Virus record (IMG/VR): IMGVR_UViG_2529293142_000021
Coordinates: 1-41,055 of that record
Length of the DNA stretch: 41,055 nucleotides
Strand: one strand, 5' to 3'
Source of the DNA: a virus
Taxonomy: Duplodnaviria; Heunggongvirae; Uroviricota; Caudoviricetes
Shown piece after piece: positions 3,917 through 39,300 of the stretch. Numbering within the stretch: position 1 is the first letter of the stretch; every line of letters starts with the position of its first letter. The notes beneath the pieces are model-generated. The model did not search any database. It was not told where the DNA came from and saw only the letters and a list, made by a program, of their open reading frames with translations. The translations under genes were made by a program, and so were the position numbers.

Positions 3917-4270
3917 TTATTTGTCGCGACGTTTAATAGACGTCTGATACTGCTGCTCGAGCTGGTGGAGTGCTGCTATAGCCTCAGAATAGGGGAGCTG
4001 ACGGAACGCGCGGAGTAACCGGATCTCATCGTCAGTGAGAGTGGTTAGATCTGGTGATTCTGTGCCGTAATCCAGCCAGGCTGGGGAGACGATGAGGTAT
4101 TCCGCCAGGGCGGACAATTTATCACTTCGCGGACGCGCGGTGCCGAGGGTGTACCGCCGCGCCATCTCATACGTAACAGAACAGACGGCGCTTAACTCTT
4201 TAACGGTTACGCGCCTTTTCTGCATTTCGGCAGTGAGCCGTTCAGCGAACGCGGCATATTTAGCGGGCAT
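3917..4270 (-). CDS. HTH regulator, CI-like paralog
   Basis: 117-aa protein with N-terminal HTH-like segment (VTVKELSAVCSVTYEMARRY) and a C-terminal region resembling that of the adjacent repressor (LRAFRQLP vs VYRALPP). Confidence 0.55.
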   Translation of the reverse strand: MPAKYAAFAERLTAEMQKRRVTVKELSAVCSVTYEMARRYTLGTARPRSDKLSALAEYLIVSPAWLDYGTESPDLTTLTDDEIRLLRAFRQLPYSEAIAALHQLEQQYQTSIKRRDK

Positions 4271-4276
4271 AAATTG

Positions 4277-4660
4277 TTATTTCTGGCGGGTCACTGGATC
4301 AACATTGTTAGCGTAATAATCGCGTAATGCCTCCAGCCTCATTTGAAACGCTGCGAGCATGTTGCGCTGCTCGATCGGGGGTAATGCTCTGTATACGTCA
4401 ACGAGCGCCCGTTCATCCTCGCTGAGAGCGCCCGCAGTTTTCTCGTCTTTCCCCGTGAGTAGCCAGTCCAGAGAAACATTGGCGGCGGCTGCGATTTTGG
4501 CGGCAGCCGCCTTACTGATAGTGCCTCGTTTGTGCCAGCCGTAAACCGACGACCGACTAACGTCGGCAATCCTGCCCATGTCGGCATCATTCCAGTGATT
4601 GCGCGTCGCTATCTCGTAAAGCCGCGCAGATAGCGGGGTGTCGTACGTTGTTTTTTTCAT
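4277..4660 (-). CDS. phage repressor, CI-like HTH protein
   Basis: 127-aa ORF transcribed divergently from the cro-like gene; HTH-like segment MGRIADVSRSSVYGWHKRG; position equivalent to cI. Confidence 0.65.
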   Translation of the reverse strand: MKKTTYDTPLSARLYEIATRNHWNDADMGRIADVSRSSVYGWHKRGTISKAAAAKIAAAANVSLDWLLTGKDEKTAGALSEDERALVDVYRALPPIEQRNMLAAFQMRLEALRDYYANNVDPVTRQK

Positions 4661-4767
4661 ACGGGCAATTATACGGCTTTACCTGATAGAAACAATTTAT
4701 ATTCCTGTTGACACGCTGTAAGGTTGTAGCTGACAATGTCAGTCATGGATTTACAAGGGGAACGATC
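4661..4767. promoter_or_regulatory. divergent promoter/operator region of the immunity switch
   Basis: Intergenic between divergent repressor and cro-like genes. TTGACA at 4708-4713; perfect 13-bp palindrome CTGACAATGTCAG at 4730-4742; AAGGGG Shine-Dalgarno before the ATG at 4768. Confidence 0.55.
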
Positions 4768-5181
4768 ATGACGGGTTTAGATAGAGCTATAAAAATTATC
4801 GGCAACCAGTGCCGCCTGGCTCTGGCGCTAAACGTGAGCGCCATGTCGGTAAACGACTGGGTGCATAAATACAAGGGCCGCGTTCCATCAGGGCGGGTCC
4901 AGGGAATTTTCCAAATTACCGGCGTTACTCCGCACGAGCTGCGCCCGGATTTGTACCCGAATCCAACGGACGGCCTGACCAGCTCGGCAGAGGCAGCACC
5001 GGTACGTCAGGGGGTGAGTGAGCAGGTGGGCGAATCAGTGCGCGAGTGTGCCGAGGCTCATTGCGCAGTGCTCACAAACGCGCCACCCGAGATTCAGGAG
5101 CGCGAGGCCCTCCAGGCAATAGCAGCGCTGGTCCCGTTTGTGCCTGGTCACCGGGTGTTAATCCTGCCGCGTGAGCAATAA
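4768..5181 (+). CDS. Cro-like HTH regulator with C-terminal extension
   Basis: Start taken at MTGLDRAIKIIGNQCRLALALNVSAMSVNDWV, which has a good RBS; the ORF track starts earlier at 4708. First rightward gene of the switch. Confidence 0.6.
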   Translation: MTGLDRAIKIIGNQCRLALALNVSAMSVNDWVHKYKGRVPSGRVQGIFQITGVTPHELRPDLYPNPTDGLTSSAEAAPVRQGVSEQVGESVRECAEAHCAVLTNAPPEIQEREALQAIAALVPFVPGHRVLILPREQ

Positions 5182-5193
5182 GCGGAGTATCGC

Positions 5194-6120
5194 ATGAGCG
5201 TGAAATTATCCGCGTGGGTTTGGGACGGTTGCGCGGCGGCGGGCATCAAAGGCAACAAGCTGCTGATCATGCTGCGCCTGGCTGATTACGCGAGCGACGA
5301 GGGGATCGCCTATCCGAGCGTGGCAACGATTGCACGGCAACTGGGAGCGGGCCGCAGCACCGTGATCGGGTTAATCAATGAACTGGTGCGCGACGGCTGG
5401 CTAACAAAACGAGAGCGCCGTCAGGGTCAACGCAGCACCAGTAATCTCTATACGCTGAATGTTTCGCGGTTGCGCAGAGCCGCCGCCGAGGCATACGCCG
5501 GGGGTCCAGATTCTGGACGTCCAGAAACTGAACCGCCAGAAACTGAACGTCCAGAAAACCCCAAAAAACCCGGTTCTGAGGGTCCAGAATCTGGACACGA
5601 TCCGTCAGTAAATTCAAAACAAGATCCGTCAGTAGAAAAACCTATTAGTCCGGACGCTACGCAACCGGACGCCGAACGGGGTGATGCAGATGAACTTTTA
5701 AACGGTCACCCGGAGGCTGTGATTTTCAGTGCGAAAAAGCGCCAGTGGGGGAGCCGTGAGGACCTGACCTGTGCGGAATGGATTTGGGGGAAAGTCGTGA
5801 GGCTGTACGAGCGGGCCGCTGAGTCAGACGGCGAGGTTGTACGACCGAGGGAGCCGAACTGGGCGGCCTGGGCAAACGAGGTGCGGCTGATGTGCAACCA
5901 AGACGGCAGGACGCATCGCCAGATCTGCGAGTTGTTCGAACGGGCAAACCGCGATCCGTTCTGGTGCAAAAACATTCTGTCACCGGGAAAGCTCCGCGAA
6001 AAATGGGATGACCTGTCGCTAAAACTCGCCGCGTACAGCGTGCCGCGCGAGGACCAGAATTTTAGAGCGAGCTACGACGACGTGGATTACAGCAAAGTGC
6101 CTGACGGGTTCAGGGTGTAG
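5194..6120 (+). CDS. replication initiation protein, O-like
   Basis: 308-aa ORF directly after cro-like gene; N-terminal HTH-like segment (YPSVATIARQLGAGRSTVIGLINEL); contains an internal cluster of short DNA repeats as expected for an origin inside an O-type gene. Confidence 0.65.
   Translation: MSVKLSAWVWDGCAAAGIKGNKLLIMLRLADYASDEGIAYPSVATIARQLGAGRSTVIGLINELVRDGWLTKRERRQGQRSTSNLYTLNVSRLRRAAAEAYAGGPDSGRPETEPPETERPENPKKPGSEGPESGHDPSVNSKQDPSVEKPISPDATQPDAERGDADELLNGHPEAVIFSAKKRQWGSREDLTCAEWIWGKVVRLYERAAESDGEVVRPREPNWAAWANEVRLMCNQDGRTHRQICELFERANRDPFWCKNILSPGKLREKWDDLSLKLAAYSVPREDQNFRASYDDVDYSKVPDGFRV
5500..5640. repeat. iteron-like repeat cluster, candidate origin
   Basis: GTCCAGAAACTGAAC repeated in tandem (about 5519-5559), TCCAGA(T/A)TCTGGA palindromes at about 5504-5518 and 5581-5596, GATCCGTCAGTA twice (about 5599-5634). 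Encodes the PETEPPETERPE low-complexity segment. Confidence 0.5.
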
Positions 6121-6162
6121 CACGCCAATCAATTGATTCAAATATATAAACGAGGTGAATTT

Positions 6163-6873
6163 ATGGAAACTGTACTTGATGCGCTATCAGCGATGGGCAA
6201 GGCGAGCTATCGCGAAATCGCAGCCCGCCTGGTGATTGAACCGGTAGAAGCGTTAAACATGCTGCGCGACCAACGGGAACAGGGCAAATGCGATTTTGAG
6301 GACGGCGGCTGGTTTGTCTGCGGCGGAGCTAAATCAGTGCCACGGCCCCGCACTAAAAACCCCCGCGGCGAGGATTTGCCGCCAGTCGATCCAGTGGCGG
6401 TGGCGGCGCTGTTGCGCAGCAAGGGGCCGATGACCGCAACTGAACTGGCTGTTGCGTTCGACCGTGATCCACGCGGAATGCCTGGTTGTTTGCAGGGGCT
6501 GGCGCTGCGGGGTGTGGTCGAAAAGCTCGGGCAGGGCCGCCGCGTTACCTGGTCTGTGCCGGGTTACGTACCCGCGGAACCGCAAACAGAGCCGCAGGAA
6601 ACAGCACCAGCAGTGCCAGCAACAACAGAAACCGCAGTACCGGAGGTCGCGCAGGCAGAAGCCACCCCGGCACCAGAAAAAACGGTAGCGGAGCTGGTGG
6701 ACACTATCCCGACGTTCGTCGGTCGCCCGGATGACCTGCTGATCCCCACTGTGCGTAGTATCTCTAACGAAATACGACGAACTAAATCAAAACTCGCTGC
6801 GCTCGAAAATCTGCGCGATTCAGTGCGCACAATTCGACGCTATCAGCATATTGCCCGGGAGATTTCACAATGA
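6163..6873 (+). CDS. hypothetical replication-module protein
   Basis: Start at METVLDAL; two winged-helix-like segments (ASYREIAARL, MTATELAVAF) and a Pro/Glu/Thr-rich linker. No Walker motif. Confidence 0.5.
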   Translation: METVLDALSAMGKASYREIAARLVIEPVEALNMLRDQREQGKCDFEDGGWFVCGGAKSVPRPRTKNPRGEDLPPVDPVAVAALLRSKGPMTATELAVAFDRDPRGMPGCLQGLALRGVVEKLGQGRRVTWSVPGYVPAEPQTEPQETAPAVPATTETAVPEVAQAEATPAPEKTVAELVDTIPTFVGRPDDLLIPTVRSISNEIRRTKSKLAALENLRDSVRTIRRYQHIAREISQ

Positions 6874-10001: not shown

Positions 10002-10265
10002 CAATAATCACCCACCGGGGCTATATTCACCGAACGCCAGCAAAATCTGGCGTCGGGATTGGTCTCCCGGATATCTACTCAACGCATACCGCGTTAAGCG
10101 GTTTTTTATGCGTAAAGCACGGCTACACCCGCGAGTTATGGTGGGCTGTGTGAGGGCTTCTTAGGAAGCGCCGGGTTTGAGTAGCCGGTAAGACCAACCT
10201 TGCACAGTTCACCACCAGTCGATTGGTCTCGACGGTGGTGATGGTTAACCCACCGAGGTGACGCT

Positions 10266-10847
10266 ATGACTACTCAAATCACTATTTCTGATATCGCCAT
10301 TCATCAGGATAACGACGGACGTTATTCTATTAATGACCTGCACAAAGCATCCGGCGCTGAACATCGCCACCTGCCTAACTACTGGCTGGAATTGCAGCAA
10401 ACCAAAGAGTTAATCGAAGAGATCTTAAATACCGGAATTCCGGTAATTACTCCACCAGTGGTAAGCAGAAAGGGCCGTAACGGCGGCACCTACGTCTGCA
10501 AAGAACTGGTTTACGCCTACGCAATGTGGATCAGCGCTGCGTTCTCTCTCCGTGTAATCCGTGCCTACGATGCGCTGGTGGCGGAAAACAGCCAAAATAA
10601 CGCAATTACCGCCATCCCCACCAGCCCACACAGCTACTCGATCGTTACCTCATTTTGCGACGGCGAGCCGATTTACAGTCGTGTTATTCAACCTGGCGAA
10701 ATTTTGATTCATCGCGATGACCATATCGAACTGATGGCCCGCGCAGGCTACATGACGATCCACTGCAATGAGCTGGAAAAAATGGGCGCACCTGAGCTGG
10801 CGCGCCGCATCGAGGCAACGCGCAGAATGATGGATATCTGGGCGTAA
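10266..10847 (+). CDS. KilA-N domain protein, possible antirepressor
   Basis: N-terminal YSINDLHKASG...LPNYWLEL...GTYVCKELVYAYAMWIS pattern typical of the KilA-N DNA-binding domain. Confidence 0.65.
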   Translation: MTTQITISDIAIHQDNDGRYSINDLHKASGAEHRHLPNYWLELQQTKELIEEILNTGIPVITPPVVSRKGRNGGTYVCKELVYAYAMWISAAFSLRVIRAYDALVAENSQNNAITAIPTSPHSYSIVTSFCDGEPIYSRVIQPGEILIHRDDHIELMARAGYMTIHCNELEKMGAPELARRIEATRRMMDIWA

Positions 10848-12300: not shown

Positions 12301-12659
12301 TGGCAAAATATTCAATCACCCCACTGGGTAAACCCCGCATGACCCGTGCTGACAAATGGAAACAGCGCCCGCCGGTGCTGCGTTACCGCGTGTTTTGTGA
12401 TGAGGTCCGCTTAAGCGGCATTACGCTGCCCGAGAACGGCGCACACGTTGTATTTGTTATGCCTATGCCAGCGAGCTGGAGCCAGAAAAAACGCGCCAGC
12501 ATGAACGGTGCGGCCCACCAGCAAAAACCGGATATTGATAACCTCACTAAATCGCTGTTAGACGCCCTGTTTGATGACGATTCTCATATTTGGGATGTCC
12601 GGGCGTCGAAAATATGGGGCTATGAGGGCGCGATCGTGGTGCAGGAAGGTGCGGCATGA
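12300..12659 (+). CDS. rusA: Holliday junction resolvase RusA-like
   Basis: 119 aa; acidic motif PDIDNLTKSLLDALFDD characteristic of RusA family; typical position upstream of Q. Confidence 0.8.
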   Translation: MAKYSITPLGKPRMTRADKWKQRPPVLRYRVFCDEVRLSGITLPENGAHVVFVMPMPASWSQKKRASMNGAAHQQKPDIDNLTKSLLDALFDDDSHIWDVRASKIWGYEGAIVVQEGAA

Positions 12660-14563
12660 AATACGGTTCCGTTTGCAGCGGTATTGAGGCCGCGAGTGTG
12701 GCGTGGGAGTCCCTCGGCTGGCAGCCTGCATGGTTCGCAGAGATTGAGCCGTTCCCCGCCGCTGTGCTGGCGCATCACTGGCCGCAGGTCAAAAACCTTG
12801 GCGATATGACGAAAATCGCCGCCGGTGTCCTCGCTGATCAAATCGAGGCACCAGACGTGCTGGTGGGCGGCACTCCCTGCCAGGCATTCAGCGTTGCCGG
12901 ATTGCGCAATGGACTGGCCGACGAACGCGGACAATTGACCCTTTCTTACGTGGAATTAGCAAATGCAATCGATGACAAGCGCCGCCAGCGCGGTGAACGG
13001 GAATCAATCATCGTCTGGGAAAATGTCCCCGGCGTGCTCAACAGCAAAGACAACGCGTTCGGATGTTTTCTGGCTGGGCTTGCCGGAGAAAGCAGTGCGT
13101 TGCAGCCACCAGGGGGAAAATGGACGCTCGCAGGTTGTGTGCGTGGACCCGCGCGAAATATTGCCTGGCGAGTGCTCGACGCTCAATTTTTCGGAGTGGC
13201 ACAACGACGCCGCCGTGTGTTCGTTATCGCAAGTGCTAGAGACGATATCGATCCCGCAAAAATACTTTTTGAGTCCGACGGCGTGCGCCGGGATACTCCG
13301 CCGCGCAGAGAGTCGCAAACGGCAGTTGCCGCTCTTACTGCGCACGGCGTTGGAGCGTGTGGCGCAGACGACAACCAGGCGCAGGCAGGACATCTAATCC
13401 CTGAGATCAGCGCATATCGCATGACCGCATTCGGCGAGTATGCTGATGATGAAACTGCATCGACAGTTAAAGCGAGAGATTACAAAGATGCGACCGATCT
13501 GGCAGTTATGACGGTCCATGGCACACAGGATCCAGACGTTAACATCGAATTAGCGCACACGCTGGGGCGGAATAATGGGCAGGAAAATGCCTGCATAGCA
13601 TTCAGCTATAAAGATCACGGCCAAGATGCAGGATATGAAATAGCGCCTACTTTGCGGGCGGGGAATTGCGATACAGGGCGGGGTAACAGCGGGCAACCGC
13701 CAGCGGTCGCCAAGGCAATGCTCGTACGCCGTCTCACTCCGCGTGAGTGTGAGCGCCTCCAGGGATTCCCGGACGACCACACAAAAATACCCTGGCGCAA
13801 CAAACTGACTGAGGACTGTCCGGACGGGGCGCGATACAAAGCGATCGGCAATAGCATGGCAGTGCCGGTGATGCGCTGGATCGGCGAGCAAATTAAACGA
13901 GCAACAGCAACGCAGGAAATTATCTGTAATCCCTACGTCGCGGCGGTTGATAAATTACGCGCGCAGAATGAACACTATTTGCGCGAAGTTGGCGATCAGT
14001 GGCGCACTCCTGATCTGCTGTTTTGGGGTATTAATGCAATATTTGGCCCACTGGTCCTCGATCTGTTTACTGACGGCGATAATTCAAAATGTCCGAATTA
14101 CTACACGGCCGAACAAAACGCGCTAACGCAAGACTGGTCCGCGCGACTCGCGGATCTGGGCGGCGCTGCGTTCGCTAATCCGCCGTACAGTCGATCGCAG
14201 TATCACGACGGACAGGCGATCACCGGCATGGCCCACATCATGAGCCACGCCCGCTCAATGCGTGACGCTGGTGGGCGTTTTGTTTTCCTGCTGAAAGCCG
14301 CGCCATCGGAAACCTGGTGGCCGGAGGACGCGGATCACGTAACGTTTATTCGCGGTCGTGTCGGTTTTGATTTGCCAGCCTGGTTTAATCCTGCTGATGA
14401 AAAACAGGCACCCTCCAGCGCAAATTTTGCGGCGGCAATTGTTGTGCTGGATAAAAACTGGCGCGGGGGCCGGTTCGGATATATCCACCGCACAGAGCTG
14501 GAAGCGAAAGGCCGCGCCGCCCTGGCGCTGGCACGGTATGCAGTCAATGAGGCCATATTTTGA
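12656..14563 (+). CDS. fused C5-cytosine and N6-adenine DNA methyltransferase
   Basis: N-terminal half has C5-MTase motifs: GSVCSGIEAAS (I), GGTPCQAFSVAG (IV), ENVPG (VI), QRRRRVF (VIII), GNSMAVPV (X). C-terminal half has a phage Dam-like region with the NPPY catalytic motif (FANPPYSRS). No cognate endonuclease nearby. Confidence 0.85.
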   Translation: MKYGSVCSGIEAASVAWESLGWQPAWFAEIEPFPAAVLAHHWPQVKNLGDMTKIAAGVLADQIEAPDVLVGGTPCQAFSVAGLRNGLADERGQLTLSYVELANAIDDKRRQRGERESIIVWENVPGVLNSKDNAFGCFLAGLAGESSALQPPGGKWTLAGCVRGPARNIAWRVLDAQFFGVAQRRRRVFVIASARDDIDPAKILFESDGVRRDTPPRRESQTAVAALTAHGVGACGADDNQAQAGHLIPEISAYRMTAFGEYADDETASTVKARDYKDATDLAVMTVHGTQDPDVNIELAHTLGRNNGQENACIAFSYKDHGQDAGYEIAPTLRAGNCDTGRGNSGQPPAVAKAMLVRRLTPRECERLQGFPDDHTKIPWRNKLTEDCPDGARYKAIGNSMAVPVMRWIGEQIKRATATQEIICNPYVAAVDKLRAQNEHYLREVGDQWRTPDLLFWGINAIFGPLVLDLFTDGDNSKCPNYYTAEQNALTQDWSARLADLGGAAFANPPYSRSQYHDGQAITGMAHIMSHARSMRDAGGRFVFLLKAAPSETWWPEDADHVTFIRGRVGFDLPAWFNPADEKQAPSSANFAAAIVVLDKNWRGGRFGYIHRTELEAKGRAALALARYAVNEAIF

Positions 14564-15240
14564 AATTAGAATCACTCCCAAAATTTTACGCACCGAAATC
14601 GCCAAATCTCGGCGCAACAGCGCCCGCCACCGGCGGCGACCGCATGACGATTACTGACGTAATGACGGCTCAGGGGTTCGTTCAGTCAAAAACGCCGCTG
14701 GGGTTCGCGTTATTTCTCGCGAAAGCAGGCATTCAGACGCCTGAGCCAGCGATTGAACTGCTGGCAAAAATCGCGTGGGAACTGGCACCGGCGTGCCGCG
14801 CTGTTAACGTGCTGCCAGGCAACCAGCGCGCTGCCGTGTGTGACGTGCTGGCAACGATGGCCTACCAGGACTACTCCCGCAGCGCCGCCAGCGTGCGCCC
14901 GTGTGACTGCTGCGCGGGTGACGGGTTTATAACTGCTGAGGTGTTTACAATGAAAATGGCAGGCGTGGTACATCGGCAGGTACGAGAGATTGAGCGCATA
15001 TTGTGCGCTAATTGTAAGGGGAAGCGAGTAATTAGCAATTCGTGCCGTTGCCACGGTAAGGGGAGGGTGTTGGATGCCTCTGGCGAGGTCCTTTTGTGGA
15101 AAGAGTGCGACCGATGTAGGGGGCGAGGATACTCTCGTTTGAAATTTTCCGCCGTACTGGTTGCGTTGCAGCGGGTGTGGCCGGAGCTAAAAAAACCACT
15201 GCTTACAATGAAGTGCAGCCATTTTTTGAAATACTGGTGA
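14560..15240 (+). CDS. late antiterminator Q-like
   Basis: Cys-rich C-terminus (CANCKGK...CRCHGKG...CDRCRGRG), last gene before the late promoter/lysis region. ORF track start is TTG at 14560; real start may be the ATG at 14644. Confidence 0.65.
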   Translation: MKLESLPKFYAPKSPNLGATAPATGGDRMTITDVMTAQGFVQSKTPLGFALFLAKAGIQTPEPAIELLAKIAWELAPACRAVNVLPGNQRAAVCDVLATMAYQDYSRSAASVRPCDCCAGDGFITAEVFTMKMAGVVHRQVREIERILCANCKGKRVISNSCRCHGKGRVLDASGEVLLWKECDRCRGRGYSRLKFSAVLVALQRVWPELKKPLLTMKCSHFLKYW

Positions 15241-15395
15241 CGCATTGCCACAGAGAAGAGGCTGCAGCCGAACAGCAATTACAGGTGGTTACGCGCTGAT
15301 TATTGCTAAAAAAAGGTGCTAAAAATTACATTGTTGCTATTCATGGAAAAATAGGATAAATTTCCTCCAACGATAGGCGTTGTATGTTCGTTCCT

Positions 15396-15450
15396 CTAAG
15401 CCCCGCCACATGGGGCTTAGTCAAAAAACACCTCTTTTTTGGTTCTTTTT
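15396..15450 (+). terminator. rho-independent terminator downstream of Q
   Basis: CTAAGCCCCGCCACATGGGGCTTAG hairpin followed by two T-runs. Confidence 0.5.
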
Positions 15451-15463
15451 ATCGTATTTTCCC

Positions 15464-15505
15464 GTGACAAGATCATGTTTACTGTTAAAATCATTCAACA
15501 TGATT
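15464..15505 (+). promoter_or_regulatory. candidate sigma70 promoter with operator palindrome for the cassette
   Basis: GTGACA (15464-15469), 16-bp spacer, TAAAAT (15486-15491); palindrome AATCAT tcaac ATGATT overlaps the -10 region. Confidence 0.35.
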
Positions 15506-15566
15506 CAGTGATGTGAATCTTTTTAAAAAAATAAAAAGCATAAATTTCAAAGAGTAAGCTCAAAAA

Positions 15567-16331
15567 ATGCAGGGTCAACCCAAGACTAAACACCAAGAGT
15601 TGGTCGAGACGCTATCATTATATATAAACTCGCGAACCCCGTTAGAGGAGCCTCTTTTGGGTGAGCTCTTACGCGAGATTAATAAGCAGTCCGTTGCCTC
15701 TCGTGCATATCTGATGGCTTTGTGGATGGAGGCTCAGAACAGGCATGATGAGACAGTGGCATGGTATCTAGAGGCGATAGCTACTTCTGGTGAGCACGCT
15801 TCTGTTGTTGCAGGTAACTATCTGAGTTACCTGAGTTGCTCAGCGCATAATCTTTTTCACAGAACAGAATTATTTCGATTGGTAGATATATATTGTACTA
15901 AGCGGATAAGAAGAATGGCCAGGAATGCAGCATTTTGCATGGGAAATGACCGGCTTGTTAACCGATTCACTGTGATGATGAAGGCTTTACTCGATGGCCA
16001 AGAACGTGAAGAAATCGAGCGTGAGGGGGCAAAAATGGTGGAAGCTATTGTCACTTTTAAAGAAGCCACTAAGCTAACTTCATCTGAAATCCAGAAGCTG
16101 TGTGATTCAGCTGAGCAAATTGCAAATAGCCATGGCGTGAATTGTGCGGGTGTTGAGTATTTTCTTAGCGGTGGATACGACAACGCCATAATTCTGTTTG
16201 CAGATACTAGCGACTCTAGCACTCTTACCACCATGAACATGGAACTCATAGGCTTGCTTGCTGATGATCCCTATATAGACCGTCCATTTACTTCATGGTT
16301 TAAGAGTTCTGATATGAAGGATCGGGTGTAA
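15567..16331 (+). CDS. hypothetical protein, gene A of the Q-holin cassette
   Basis: 254-aa ORF, AT-rich relative to flanks; stop overlaps the start of the next ORF (TAATG); no Walker A or other catalytic motif recognised. Confidence 0.65.
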   Translation: MQGQPKTKHQELVETLSLYINSRTPLEEPLLGELLREINKQSVASRAYLMALWMEAQNRHDETVAWYLEAIATSGEHASVVAGNYLSYLSCSAHNLFHRTELFRLVDIYCTKRIRRMARNAAFCMGNDRLVNRFTVMMKALLDGQEREEIEREGAKMVEAIVTFKEATKLTSSEIQKLCDSAEQIANSHGVNCAGVEYFLSGGYDNAIILFADTSDSSTLTTMNMELIGLLADDPYIDRPFTSWFKSSDMKDRV

Positions 16332-16732
16332 TGAGTGTATCAGGTCAAGATTTCATTAATTTTGCAGAGAAGTGTCTCGAATTTAATGATGAGATAGGTT
16401 TCAGGAATGTGGTAGGACGCTCCTATTATGGTGTTTACCATGAAATCTGTAGCAAACTTGAGCATTGTTATGTGCTGACTTCTCATGAAGGTGTTCGCAA
16501 TTACCTTATGAGTTCTACGCAGTGTAAAAAAGAGCCGTTTGATAAAGCCGGACTCAGAAGAATTGGTGCATTTCTTCATAGTCTTCATGTGCAGAGAAAG
16601 TGGGCTGATTACACTCTTGAACGCGAATTAGTTAAAGCTGATGCGGAATCCGCACTCAATACCGCAAAACAAGTCATGGCTGAAATCAAGGCCTTACACG
16701 AGGCGGTTTACCCTCCTCAACCTGCTGCGTAA
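16331..16732 (+). CDS. HEPN-like protein, gene B of the Q-holin cassette
   Basis: 133-aa ORF translationally coupled to gene A; contains RNVVGRSYYGVYHEI, RRIGAFLH (R-x5-H) and RKWADY, reminiscent of HEPN RNase domains. Confidence 0.55.
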   Translation: MSVSGQDFINFAEKCLEFNDEIGFRNVVGRSYYGVYHEICSKLEHCYVLTSHEGVRNYLMSSTQCKKEPFDKAGLRRIGAFLHSLHVQRKWADYTLERELVKADAESALNTAKQVMAEIKALHEAVYPPQPAA

Positions 16733-16751
16733 CTCACGAAATCCGACATGG

Positions 16752-16778
16752 AAACCCGCCTCCGAGCGGGTTTTTTTG
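16752..16778 (+). terminator. rho-independent terminator after the cassette
   Basis: AAACCCGC tccgag GCGGGTTT followed by TTTTTTT. Confidence 0.6.
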
Positions 16779-16868
16779 TGCTTTTTTCCGTAAATCTCAT
16801 TGCTAACACCACGGTTGGTGTTAATTCCTCGTAGTGAGATTTGCAGAAAAACAGGTGTTACCGCGTTT

Positions 16869-16891
16869 CCCCGTATTCCCCGGGGTTTTTT
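16869..16891 (+). terminator. GC hairpin plus T-run upstream of holin
   Basis: CCCCG tattc CCCGGGG followed by TTTTTT; preceded by nested inverted repeats at 16792-16842. Confidence 0.4.
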
Positions 16892-16936
16892 ATTCAATCT
16901 GCCACCGCTGGTGGTATCCATTTATTCGAGTCGCAT

Positions 16937-39067: not shown

Positions 39068-39080
39068 CTTAAGGTGTTTT

Positions 39081-39133
39081 TGGTCGGCACGAGAGGATTT
39101 GAACCTCCGACCCCCGACACCCCATGACGGTGC
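39081..39133 (-). other. tRNA 3'-half fragment (anticodon arm CAU, T-arm, acceptor 3' strand, CCA)
   Basis: Minus strand reads GCACC GTCATGG GGTGT ... GGAGG TTCAAAT CCTCT CGTGCCG A CCA. No complementary 5' acceptor strand or D-arm upstream, so not a complete tRNA. Confidence 0.4.
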
Positions 39134-39300
39134 GGGGCGTTCGGTGTTTGCATTTTGCAATTTTGCGAAAATGTAAATTAATTGTATTAATGCGTCATTA
39201 TCTGCAGATTTATAAGCCTGCCCCGATGAAAAAGCGGTTATCAAAACTCAAAAAGAGTTATCGCAAAACAAGCACTTGCAAACCATCTCAAATGATGTGA

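Follow-up and report, generated by a model that had tools for sequence, protein, structure and literature searches.

What role is played by a two-gene cassette that sits between the antiterminator gene Q and the lysis genes of an Escherichia coli prophage? The question was raised by a stretch of 41,055 nt of viral DNA (IMG/VR record IMGVR_UViG_2529293142_000021, positions 1 to 41,055; hereafter the window), which had previously been described by a model from its letters and a list of its open reading frames (ORFs) alone (hereafter the sequence-only reading). The cassette consists of two ORFs, here called gene A and gene B:

15567–16331, plus strand: gene A, ORF with ATG start, 254 aa
16331–16732, plus strand: gene B, ORF with ATG start, 133 aa

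The coordinates and the sequence confirm the one-base overlap (TAATG) that the sequence-only reading had described for the two ORFs. The Shine-Dalgarno sequence of gene B, AAGGA, lies inside the 3' end of gene A, indicating that the two genes are translationally coupled. The A–B pair belongs to a widespread and uncharacterized family, a HEPN dyad in which the partner is a protein other than MNT. We favor, at about an even chance, the view that the cassette may serve as a toxin–antitoxin-like abortive-infection (or superinfection-exclusion) module of the lysogen.

The resemblance of gene B to HEPN proteins, first suspected from short motifs, was borne out by its predicted structure and by profile matches of its family. 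The AlphaFold (AF2) model consists of five helices with a pLDDT score of 87.9, and its best Foldseek match is AF0298 (2hsb; TM 0.67/0.70, prob 1.0). The further matches, almost all of them HEPN, include 2q00, 1ylm, Csm6, HepT, and the HEPN domain of sacsin, and SsR10 and YutE are named as well. Gene B alone has no significant match in Pfam (including PF05168), NCBIfam, or PADLOC, and a PHROGs search of both proteins returned only families without assigned function, among them phrog_5176 for gene B (2.2e-35). The Pfam HEPN family PF05168 was matched by 37 of 66 gene B relatives (best 5.2e-7), one homolog is named "UPF0332 family" in one source, and the gene B family profile matched 9xbd (3.7e-14) and 2hsb (AF0298; 2e-8) in the PDB. 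Its fold, the four-helix up-down arrangement of HEPN, and its profile links classify gene B as a HEPN protein, and an exhaustive profile search recovered 1,084 representative clusters of small proteins resembling it.

The conservation pattern among the 66 sampled relatives (22–59% identity) places gene B more precisely. E21, R25, Y32, Y33, R89, D93, and Y94 are invariant, and R30, H37, and H52 are conserved at 98%. The canonical HEPN motif Rx4-6H is not present; the sequence reads R89-K-W-A-D93-Y94, with Asp in all 66 sequences. Among the three motifs singled out by the sequence-only reading, RNVVGRSYYGVYHEI and RKWADY do contain invariant residues, whereas the R-x5-H motif RRIGAFLH is not conserved and was rejected as the catalytic motif because R76, R77, and H83 all vary. 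In the model, E21 starts helix 21–42, R89-x3-D93-Y94 ends helix 72–94, and H52 is carried by a short helix (52–60) falling between these two. It was reported that in AF0298-like HEPN-T proteins and in AbiV the motif His is absent and often replaced by Asp while the Arg is kept, and that in this configuration an alternative active site could be built with a second conserved His, supplied by the insert that separates helices 2 and 3; helix 2 bears an acidic residue (Anantharaman et al., 2013; PMC3710099). Gene B shows each of these features, namely R89 and D93 in 100% of the sequences, H52 in the helix 2–3 insert in 98%, and E21 in 100%. Judged from sequence and model, it is thus a member of the AF0298-like HEPN-T subclass (PF05168 clade, UPF0332).

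A HEPN variant without the motif His can be catalytic, since AbiV, which shares this configuration, is reported as an active ribonuclease (RNase) that degrades rRNA and aborts infection (PMC13064643). The lack of the canonical His could also mean that gene B encodes a non-catalytic HEPN protein that binds RNA or a ligand and forms with A a regulatory or ribosome-associated complex, tuning translation or RNA processing in the lysogen without killing the cell. Inactive HEPN domains do serve as binding or regulatory modules, for example in MtlR and in MNT-fused HEPN proteins (PMC3710099). The activity reported for AbiV argues against such a role, as does the fact that seven residues, polar or aromatic, never change among highly divergent sequences, with the R/H/E set of the alternative site among them, and we consider a purely binding function of B improbable.

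Gene A encodes a protein of a different kind. Its model (pLDDT 81.7) comprises TPR-like helical repeats at approximately residues 8–139, two long helices at 144–188, and a small alpha/beta domain (beta-beta-alpha-beta) at 193–247, which ends in a conserved PFTSWF. This C-terminal domain is similar to RimP and RbfA, two ribosome-maturation factors, and to the KH domain of EngA, a likeness that would also suit a ribosome-associated complex with a non-catalytic B. Searches of Pfam and NCBIfam with gene A gave no significant match. Its family comprises 46 clusters at 90% identity, all from Enterobacterales and annotated as "hypothetical" or "TPR repeat protein." Residues 21–80, in the TPR half, are the most variable, and residues 81–140 and 161–200 the most conserved. 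No conserved set of catalytic-type residues was found in the family alignment, no nucleotidyltransferase match was obtained in Pfam or NCBIfam, and no conserved G[SG]...DxD was seen when the alignment was inspected. The possibility that gene A is a cryptic MNT was rejected on its fold (TPR-like plus RimP/RbfA-like). With its variable TPR half and no conserved catalytic-type residues, gene A looks like a binder.

These features also bear on whether the roles could be reversed, with A as the effector or toxin and the HEPN protein B as its antitoxin or regulator. For the HEPN–MNT dyads, in which the 5' gene is the antitoxin, the roles were at first wrongly predicted in this way (PMC3710099), and the better ribosome-binding site of gene B may allow B to be made in excess. 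A reversal would nonetheless make a toxin of a protein that lacks an enzyme-like fold and conserved catalytic residues; most type II dyads have the antitoxin as their 5' gene, and HEPN is the toxic partner in every characterized system cited here. We regard it as the least probable of the readings weighed in this study.

The two genes are found together far beyond the window. Gene A lies directly 5' of gene B, with an overlap of 1–4 nt, in all nine lineages inspected, remote pairs included. In the remote pairs, for which six members were sampled by hand, a gene B of about 30% identity is preceded by a gene A of about 20% identity to the window proteins; the remote A relatives reached hhalign probabilities of 94–98% and local hmmsearch E-values of 5e-18 to 5e-5, and the GC content of these loci ranges from 28% to 53%. 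By these comparisons, the A–B pairing appears to be obligate, and the pair is old and mobile. The pair occupies at least six genomic slots, one of which is chromosomal:

Q-to-lysis junction, with three different Q families: the window and loci L007, L011, L013, and L018
nin region upstream of Q: other E. coli prophages
between the genes for the tape measure and the distal tail: Raoultella
within the baseplate cluster of a myovirus: E. coli, Citrobacter, and Salmonella
P22-like immI/tailspike region: metagenome contigs L032 and L033
chromosomal serine-cycle gene cluster: three metagenome scaffolds

In the baseplate branch, A and B share 27–30% and 36% identity with the window proteins, respectively, and its B aligns with the window family at an hhalign probability of 99.8%; amid the tail operon, this divergent version likewise carries a promoter-like site, together with a canonical terminator. 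In the chromosomal slot, the remote dyad (L029, positions 4258–5402; also L030 and L031) is flanked by a class-V aminotransferase on one side and a 2-hydroxyacid dehydrogenase on the other. Other genes nearby encode malyl-CoA lyase, a malate thiokinase-like ligase, Mpt_N, and glycerate kinase, making up a non-phage neighborhood that resembles the serine cycle of methylotrophs.

The cassette is equipped for its own transcription, as can be read from the following signals:

15464–15491, plus strand: module promoter, sigma70-like, with −35 GTGACA (15464–15469), a 16-nt spacer, and extended −10 TGtTAAAAT (15483–15491)
15489–15505, plus strand: palindrome 1, AATCAT-n5-ATGATT, overlapping the −10, read from the sequence
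15502–15519, plus strand: palindrome 2, GATTCA-n6-TGAATC, overlapping palindrome 1, read from the sequence
16750–16785, plus strand: the module's intrinsic terminator, GGAAACCCGCCUCCGAGCGGGUUUUU and then a T-run, matched by the scanner (dG −17.2, z −2.4)
15396–15420, plus strand: upstream hairpin with a 10-bp stem, CUAAGCCCCG/UGGGGCUUAG (dG −19.6 kcal/mol, z −4.2)

A sigma70-like promoter whose −10 is overlapped by a palindrome had been proposed, and the scan agrees, scoring the site 10/12 with its TG extension. The arrangement GTGACA-16 nt-TA[G/A]AAT with TGn is retained in all five alignable Enterobacterales loci, which represent three different slots (Q–lysis, nin, and tail), while the spacer sequence differs. 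Palindrome 1 is perfect in two of these five loci and partial in the others; palindrome 2 is perfect in two and matches at 5/6 in a third. A lone 6-bp palindrome in AT-rich DNA is within chance, and palindrome 1 gains weight only from its partial conservation in relatives; lying at or just after the −10, both palindromes appear operator-like. A structured 5' leader RNA was considered and rejected, as the predicted fold is no better than that of shuffled sequences (z −0.5). A 16-nt direct repeat, its copies 88% identical, occurs once in the presumed PR' region (AAATAGGATAAATTTC, 15349–15364) and once in the cassette leader (AAAAAGCATAAATTTC, 15533–15548); it forms a two-copy family and may be due to chance.

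Terminator hairpins had been claimed on both sides of the cassette; the downstream one is confirmed, the upstream one with qualification. The terminator at 16750–16785 is canonical, and each related locus has a hairpin and T-run 20–40 nt past the gene B stop, in which the stem sequence differs yet still pairs. The hairpin at 15396–15420 was not called as a terminator by the scanner, and its T-run begins about 17 nt past the stem. Homology between slots starts only at about 15459, which leaves this hairpin out of the stretch that moves along with the cassette. Since alignment 5' of 15459 is limited to loci with the same Q type, which carry non-homologous hairpins of their own at this place, the hairpin is probably the phage's own late-leader terminator after PR' (tR'-like) or an insulator, external to the mobile unit. 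Positions 16700–16712 at the 3' end of gene B (GAGGCGGTTTACC) are 85% complementary to the 5' arm of the terminator (16750–16762), an alternative pairing that could link termination with gene B translation or could be a chance match.

The sequence-only reading had taken the cassette for an autonomous moron in the Q–lysis slot, and the recovery of the promoter-A-B-terminator unit in five other slots substantiates this. Because the promoter hexamers have been preserved in the copies from Enterobacterales, as has a terminator whose stem varies by compensating changes, the cassette is a true mobile moron. It is one in the Juhala/Hendrix sense, an autonomous transcription unit set between genes that adjoin each other in related phages: its own promoter and terminator are kept across three or more slots, with six slots in all, and its GC content is 0.43, against 0.555 for Q and 0.50 for the prophage. 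Such a lifestyle is typical of conflict systems and is a further point against a non-catalytic B. The cassette is also rare. No copy of the whole prophage or of its cassette was found in 5,426 complete RefSeq E. coli genomes, in which three cassette variants occur 0, 0, and 2 times. Neither megablast of the cassette DNA against the phage collection nor tblastn with gene A as query on 50,697 phage records gave a match, so that no sequenced reference phage is available for context.

Rarity and patchiness speak for a selfish addiction or stabilization toxin–antitoxin, in which B is the toxin and A a labile antitoxin, loss of the pair kills or arrests the cell, and no anti-phage role is involved. 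The anatomy of such a system would be identical to that of the favored abortive-infection module, and the dyad in the chromosomal metabolic gene cluster of the three metagenome scaffolds would fit it as well; this non-phage context disfavors a role specific to the phage cycle. Most of the contexts, on the other hand, are prophage moron slots beside other defense-type cargo (HicAB, methyltransferases, and an M78 peptidase pair near other A–B loci), and a TPR sensor-like domain with a variable surface would be superfluous for simple addiction. We judge pure addiction to be unlikely.

In the abortive-infection module that we favor, gene A would be made first, in the 5' "antitoxin" position held by MNT in HEPN–MNT dyads, and its product, a non-enzymatic protein, would bind B and keep it inactive. 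B is proposed to dimerize and act as a metal-independent RNase, whose alternative active site would be formed by R89 with H52 and E21, with D93 and Y94 adjacent. The variable TPR surface of A may sense an infection cue, upon which B would be released or allowed onto RNA. Along with this RNase activity, A–B binding, and trigger, we infer a toxicity of B and a defense phenotype of the lysogen. The module's own promoter would drive expression in the lysogen, and Q-modified late transcription would read through the module on induction and boost it.

Several observations weigh against this mechanism. The Shine-Dalgarno sequence is weak for gene A and good for gene B, which is atypical for an arrangement that provides antitoxin in excess. 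Neither A nor B has a recognizable DNA-binding domain, which leaves the operator-like palindromes without an obvious reader. Gene B lacks the canonical His of Rx4-6H, and the activity of its subclass is deduced from AbiV and the structural argument of 2013. In PADLOC-DB v2.0.0, gene B had 0 matches and gene A only chance-level ones (E at least 0.003 over about 50 residues).

A more ambitious and rather unlikely extension is that A–B founds a large undescribed HEPN class, in which a His-less HEPN-T RNase is held under a stoichiometric TPR protein, the RimP/RbfA-like domain docks on the 30S subunit or rRNA, and sensing of infection by the TPR repeats would lead to ribosome-directed RNA cleavage. 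The outcome would be similar to that of AbiV, but the regulator would differ, involving neither AMPylation by MNT nor an RNA.

HEPN RNases are recurrent effectors of bacterial immunity, as exemplified by Cas13, Csm6, HepT, AbiV, HepS, and Tha. Structures of AF0298-like HEPN-T proteins have been solved since 2006, and no assigned activity for them was found in the literature read here. Here, a branch of HEPN-T comprising at least several hundred clusters at 50% identity is apparently in obligate partnership with a TPR/RimP-like protein that had not been annotated before, and the pair travels as a promoter-to-terminator cassette through the accessory slots of phages. If the pair is a defense or toxin–antitoxin system, it would represent a new regulatory logic for HEPN, with a protein sensor and restraint in place of MNT, and would assign a function to numerous prophage genes now called "hypothetical" in E. 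coli, Salmonella, Klebsiella, Enterobacter, and elsewhere. At 1.3 kb with its native promoter, the cassette is cheap to test.

The genes upstream of the cassette suggest one further possible role:

12656–14563, upstream of Q: ORF of 635 aa, fused Dcm and Dam methyltransferase (PF00145 2.8e-42, PF05869 1.1e-40)
14560–15240, upstream of the cassette: Q antiterminator, PF03589-type

The 635-aa ORF, directly upstream of Q, joins a C-5 cytosine methyltransferase to a Dam-type N6-adenine methyltransferase and probably has an anti-restriction function. With such a neighbor and a position downstream of Q that would boost its expression in lytic growth, the cassette itself could be an anti-defense module, in which B with A is a HEPN-like decoy or inhibitor of host RNA-targeting or HEPN immunity, for example by forming dead heterodimers. 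The missing canonical His of gene B would agree with this. Its own conserved sigma70 promoter and terminator imply expression in the lysogen instead, the pair also occurs in a non-phage chromosomal setting, and invariant active-site-like residues are unexpected in a decoy; an anti-defense role is therefore very unlikely.

On its 3' side, the cassette is followed by a holin-like ORF and a CHAP endolysin. The GC content is 0.444 for gene A, 0.420 for gene B, and 0.426 for the whole module, compared with 0.555 for Q, 0.567 for the methyltransferase, 0.44 for the holin-like ORF, 0.512 for the endolysin, and a prophage mean of 0.50. The drop of about 10 points relative to the flanking genes that had been estimated by eye thus holds against Q and the methyltransferase, which the cassette undercuts by 11–14 points, but not against the holin-like ORF. 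Between the cassette terminator and the holin-like ORF, a 17-nt inverted repeat (16783–16851; 88% complementary, arms 35 nt apart) encloses a smaller hairpin, and a further terminator-like hairpin lies at 16869–16885; both may belong to the leader of the late operon. At its right end, the window matches the E. coli genes icd/ymgK/iraM/ycgX at approximately 100% identity, which identifies the host as E. coli and the insertion site as icd. Just inside the prophage end, beside the icd junction, 56 nt (39079–39134) match a portion of an E. coli tRNA-Pro gene at 100% identity. An isrK RNA (10034–10108; Rfam, 66.9 bits) lies beside a C4 antisense RNA (10134–10219; 71.3 bits), a pair that represents a P1/P7-type antisense immunity element and adjoins DNA matching the C-terminal domain of the P22AR antirepressor.

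The prophage is also targeted by CRISPR spacers of E. coli. Three protospacers, each with its protospacer-adjacent motif (PAM), lie within the cassette:

15673–15705, minus strand: protospacer, 100% match to an E. coli type I-E spacer, array ygcE-queE, strain AB66, PAM ATG
15918–15949, plus strand: protospacer, 100% match to an E. coli type I-E spacer, array ygcE-queE, e.g., strain 13KWH46, PAM ATG
16350–16381, plus strand: protospacer, 100% match to an E. coli type I-E spacer, array iap-cas2, e.g., FDAARGOS_497, PAM AAG

A spacer matching the cassette perfectly is present in 146 of the 5,426 complete E. coli genomes, and the prophage in none. Three arrays with 29 spacers in total were chosen because they match the cassette, and no enrichment in the cassette is claimed; nine of these spacers match the window, eight of them perfectly, and all nine protospacers have an AAG or ATG PAM. 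The other window positions matched by type I-E spacers are 701–732, 2729–2760, 4609–4643, 6143–6174, 10266–10297, 13714–13750, and 14195–14226. All the matches seen are in the early half (<16.4 kb), the structural half not having been fairly sampled.

How, then, does the A–B dyad compare with known systems? The sequence-only reading could not match the pair to any named toxin–antitoxin or defense system, and the same result was obtained with PADLOC, Pfam, NCBIfam, and the searchable literature, in which there was no paper with the A or B protein accessions and nothing relevant on PDB 9xbd. DefensePredictor DS-28 is a validated two-gene E. coli defense system that likewise combines a small HEPN protein with a partner of about 250 aa. 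Its gene order is reversed, its HEPN protein has 163 aa with a canonical RNSVAH, and its sequences are unrelated by inspection; identity with DS-28 was rejected on order, motif, and sequence. No signature peptide of A or B was found among the tested sequences of the DefensePredictor study.

HepS of Gifsy-1 and Tha of Staphylococcus aureus prophages are, like gene B, HEPN proteins encoded by accessory genes of temperate phages. Both are reported as prophage abortive-infection proteins that are expressed in the lysogen and triggered by proteins of the incoming phage (HepS, PMC13043305; Tha, PMC11087260), and they offer a precedent for the favored module. Unlike A–B, they are single proteins with a canonical Rx4H and no partner gene, unrelated to A and B in sequence and architecture. 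Identity with either was rejected, HepS being a solo protein with R100-H105 and Tha a single 301-aa protein with RNSIMH. The LA2681 and AbiU2 families offer a parallel to the pairing, as the 2013 census lists them as sharing operons with proteins of TPR or Sel1 repeats (Anantharaman et al., 2013, Table 1; PMC3710099), so that a HEPN gene is again accompanied by an alpha-solenoid repeat protein. These families, set apart here by their description, keep the His of Rx4-6H, whereas the gene B profile leads to HEPN-T/AF0298.

The lactococcal AbiV shares with gene B the absence of the motif His and the alternative conserved His from the helix 2–3 insert (PMC3710099). It differs in its length (201 aa) and in its RNA antitoxin, whereas the module described here has a protein partner, and gene B is without any PADLOC match. 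A type III (AbiV/ToxIN-like) RNA antitoxin was rejected for the cassette, given that there are no tandem repeats in 15200–16900 and no Rfam family within it. In the HEPN–MNT systems (HepT/MntA, type VII), the partner is a nucleotidyltransferase; the partner here is TPR-like plus RimP/RbfA-like, and neutralization by AMPylation is not expected since gene A is not a nucleotidyltransferase. Gene B also differs in having Asp for the motif His. What A–B shares with HEPN–MNT is the organization as a two-gene dyad with the HEPN gene 3' of an overlapping partner, a small stand-alone HEPN protein of the nucleotidyltransferase-associated clade, and the conserved Tyr beside the Arg motif (Y94 in gene B), and the nearest solved relatives of gene B, 2hsb (AF0298) and 9xbd, belong to the PF05168 HEPN-T clade.

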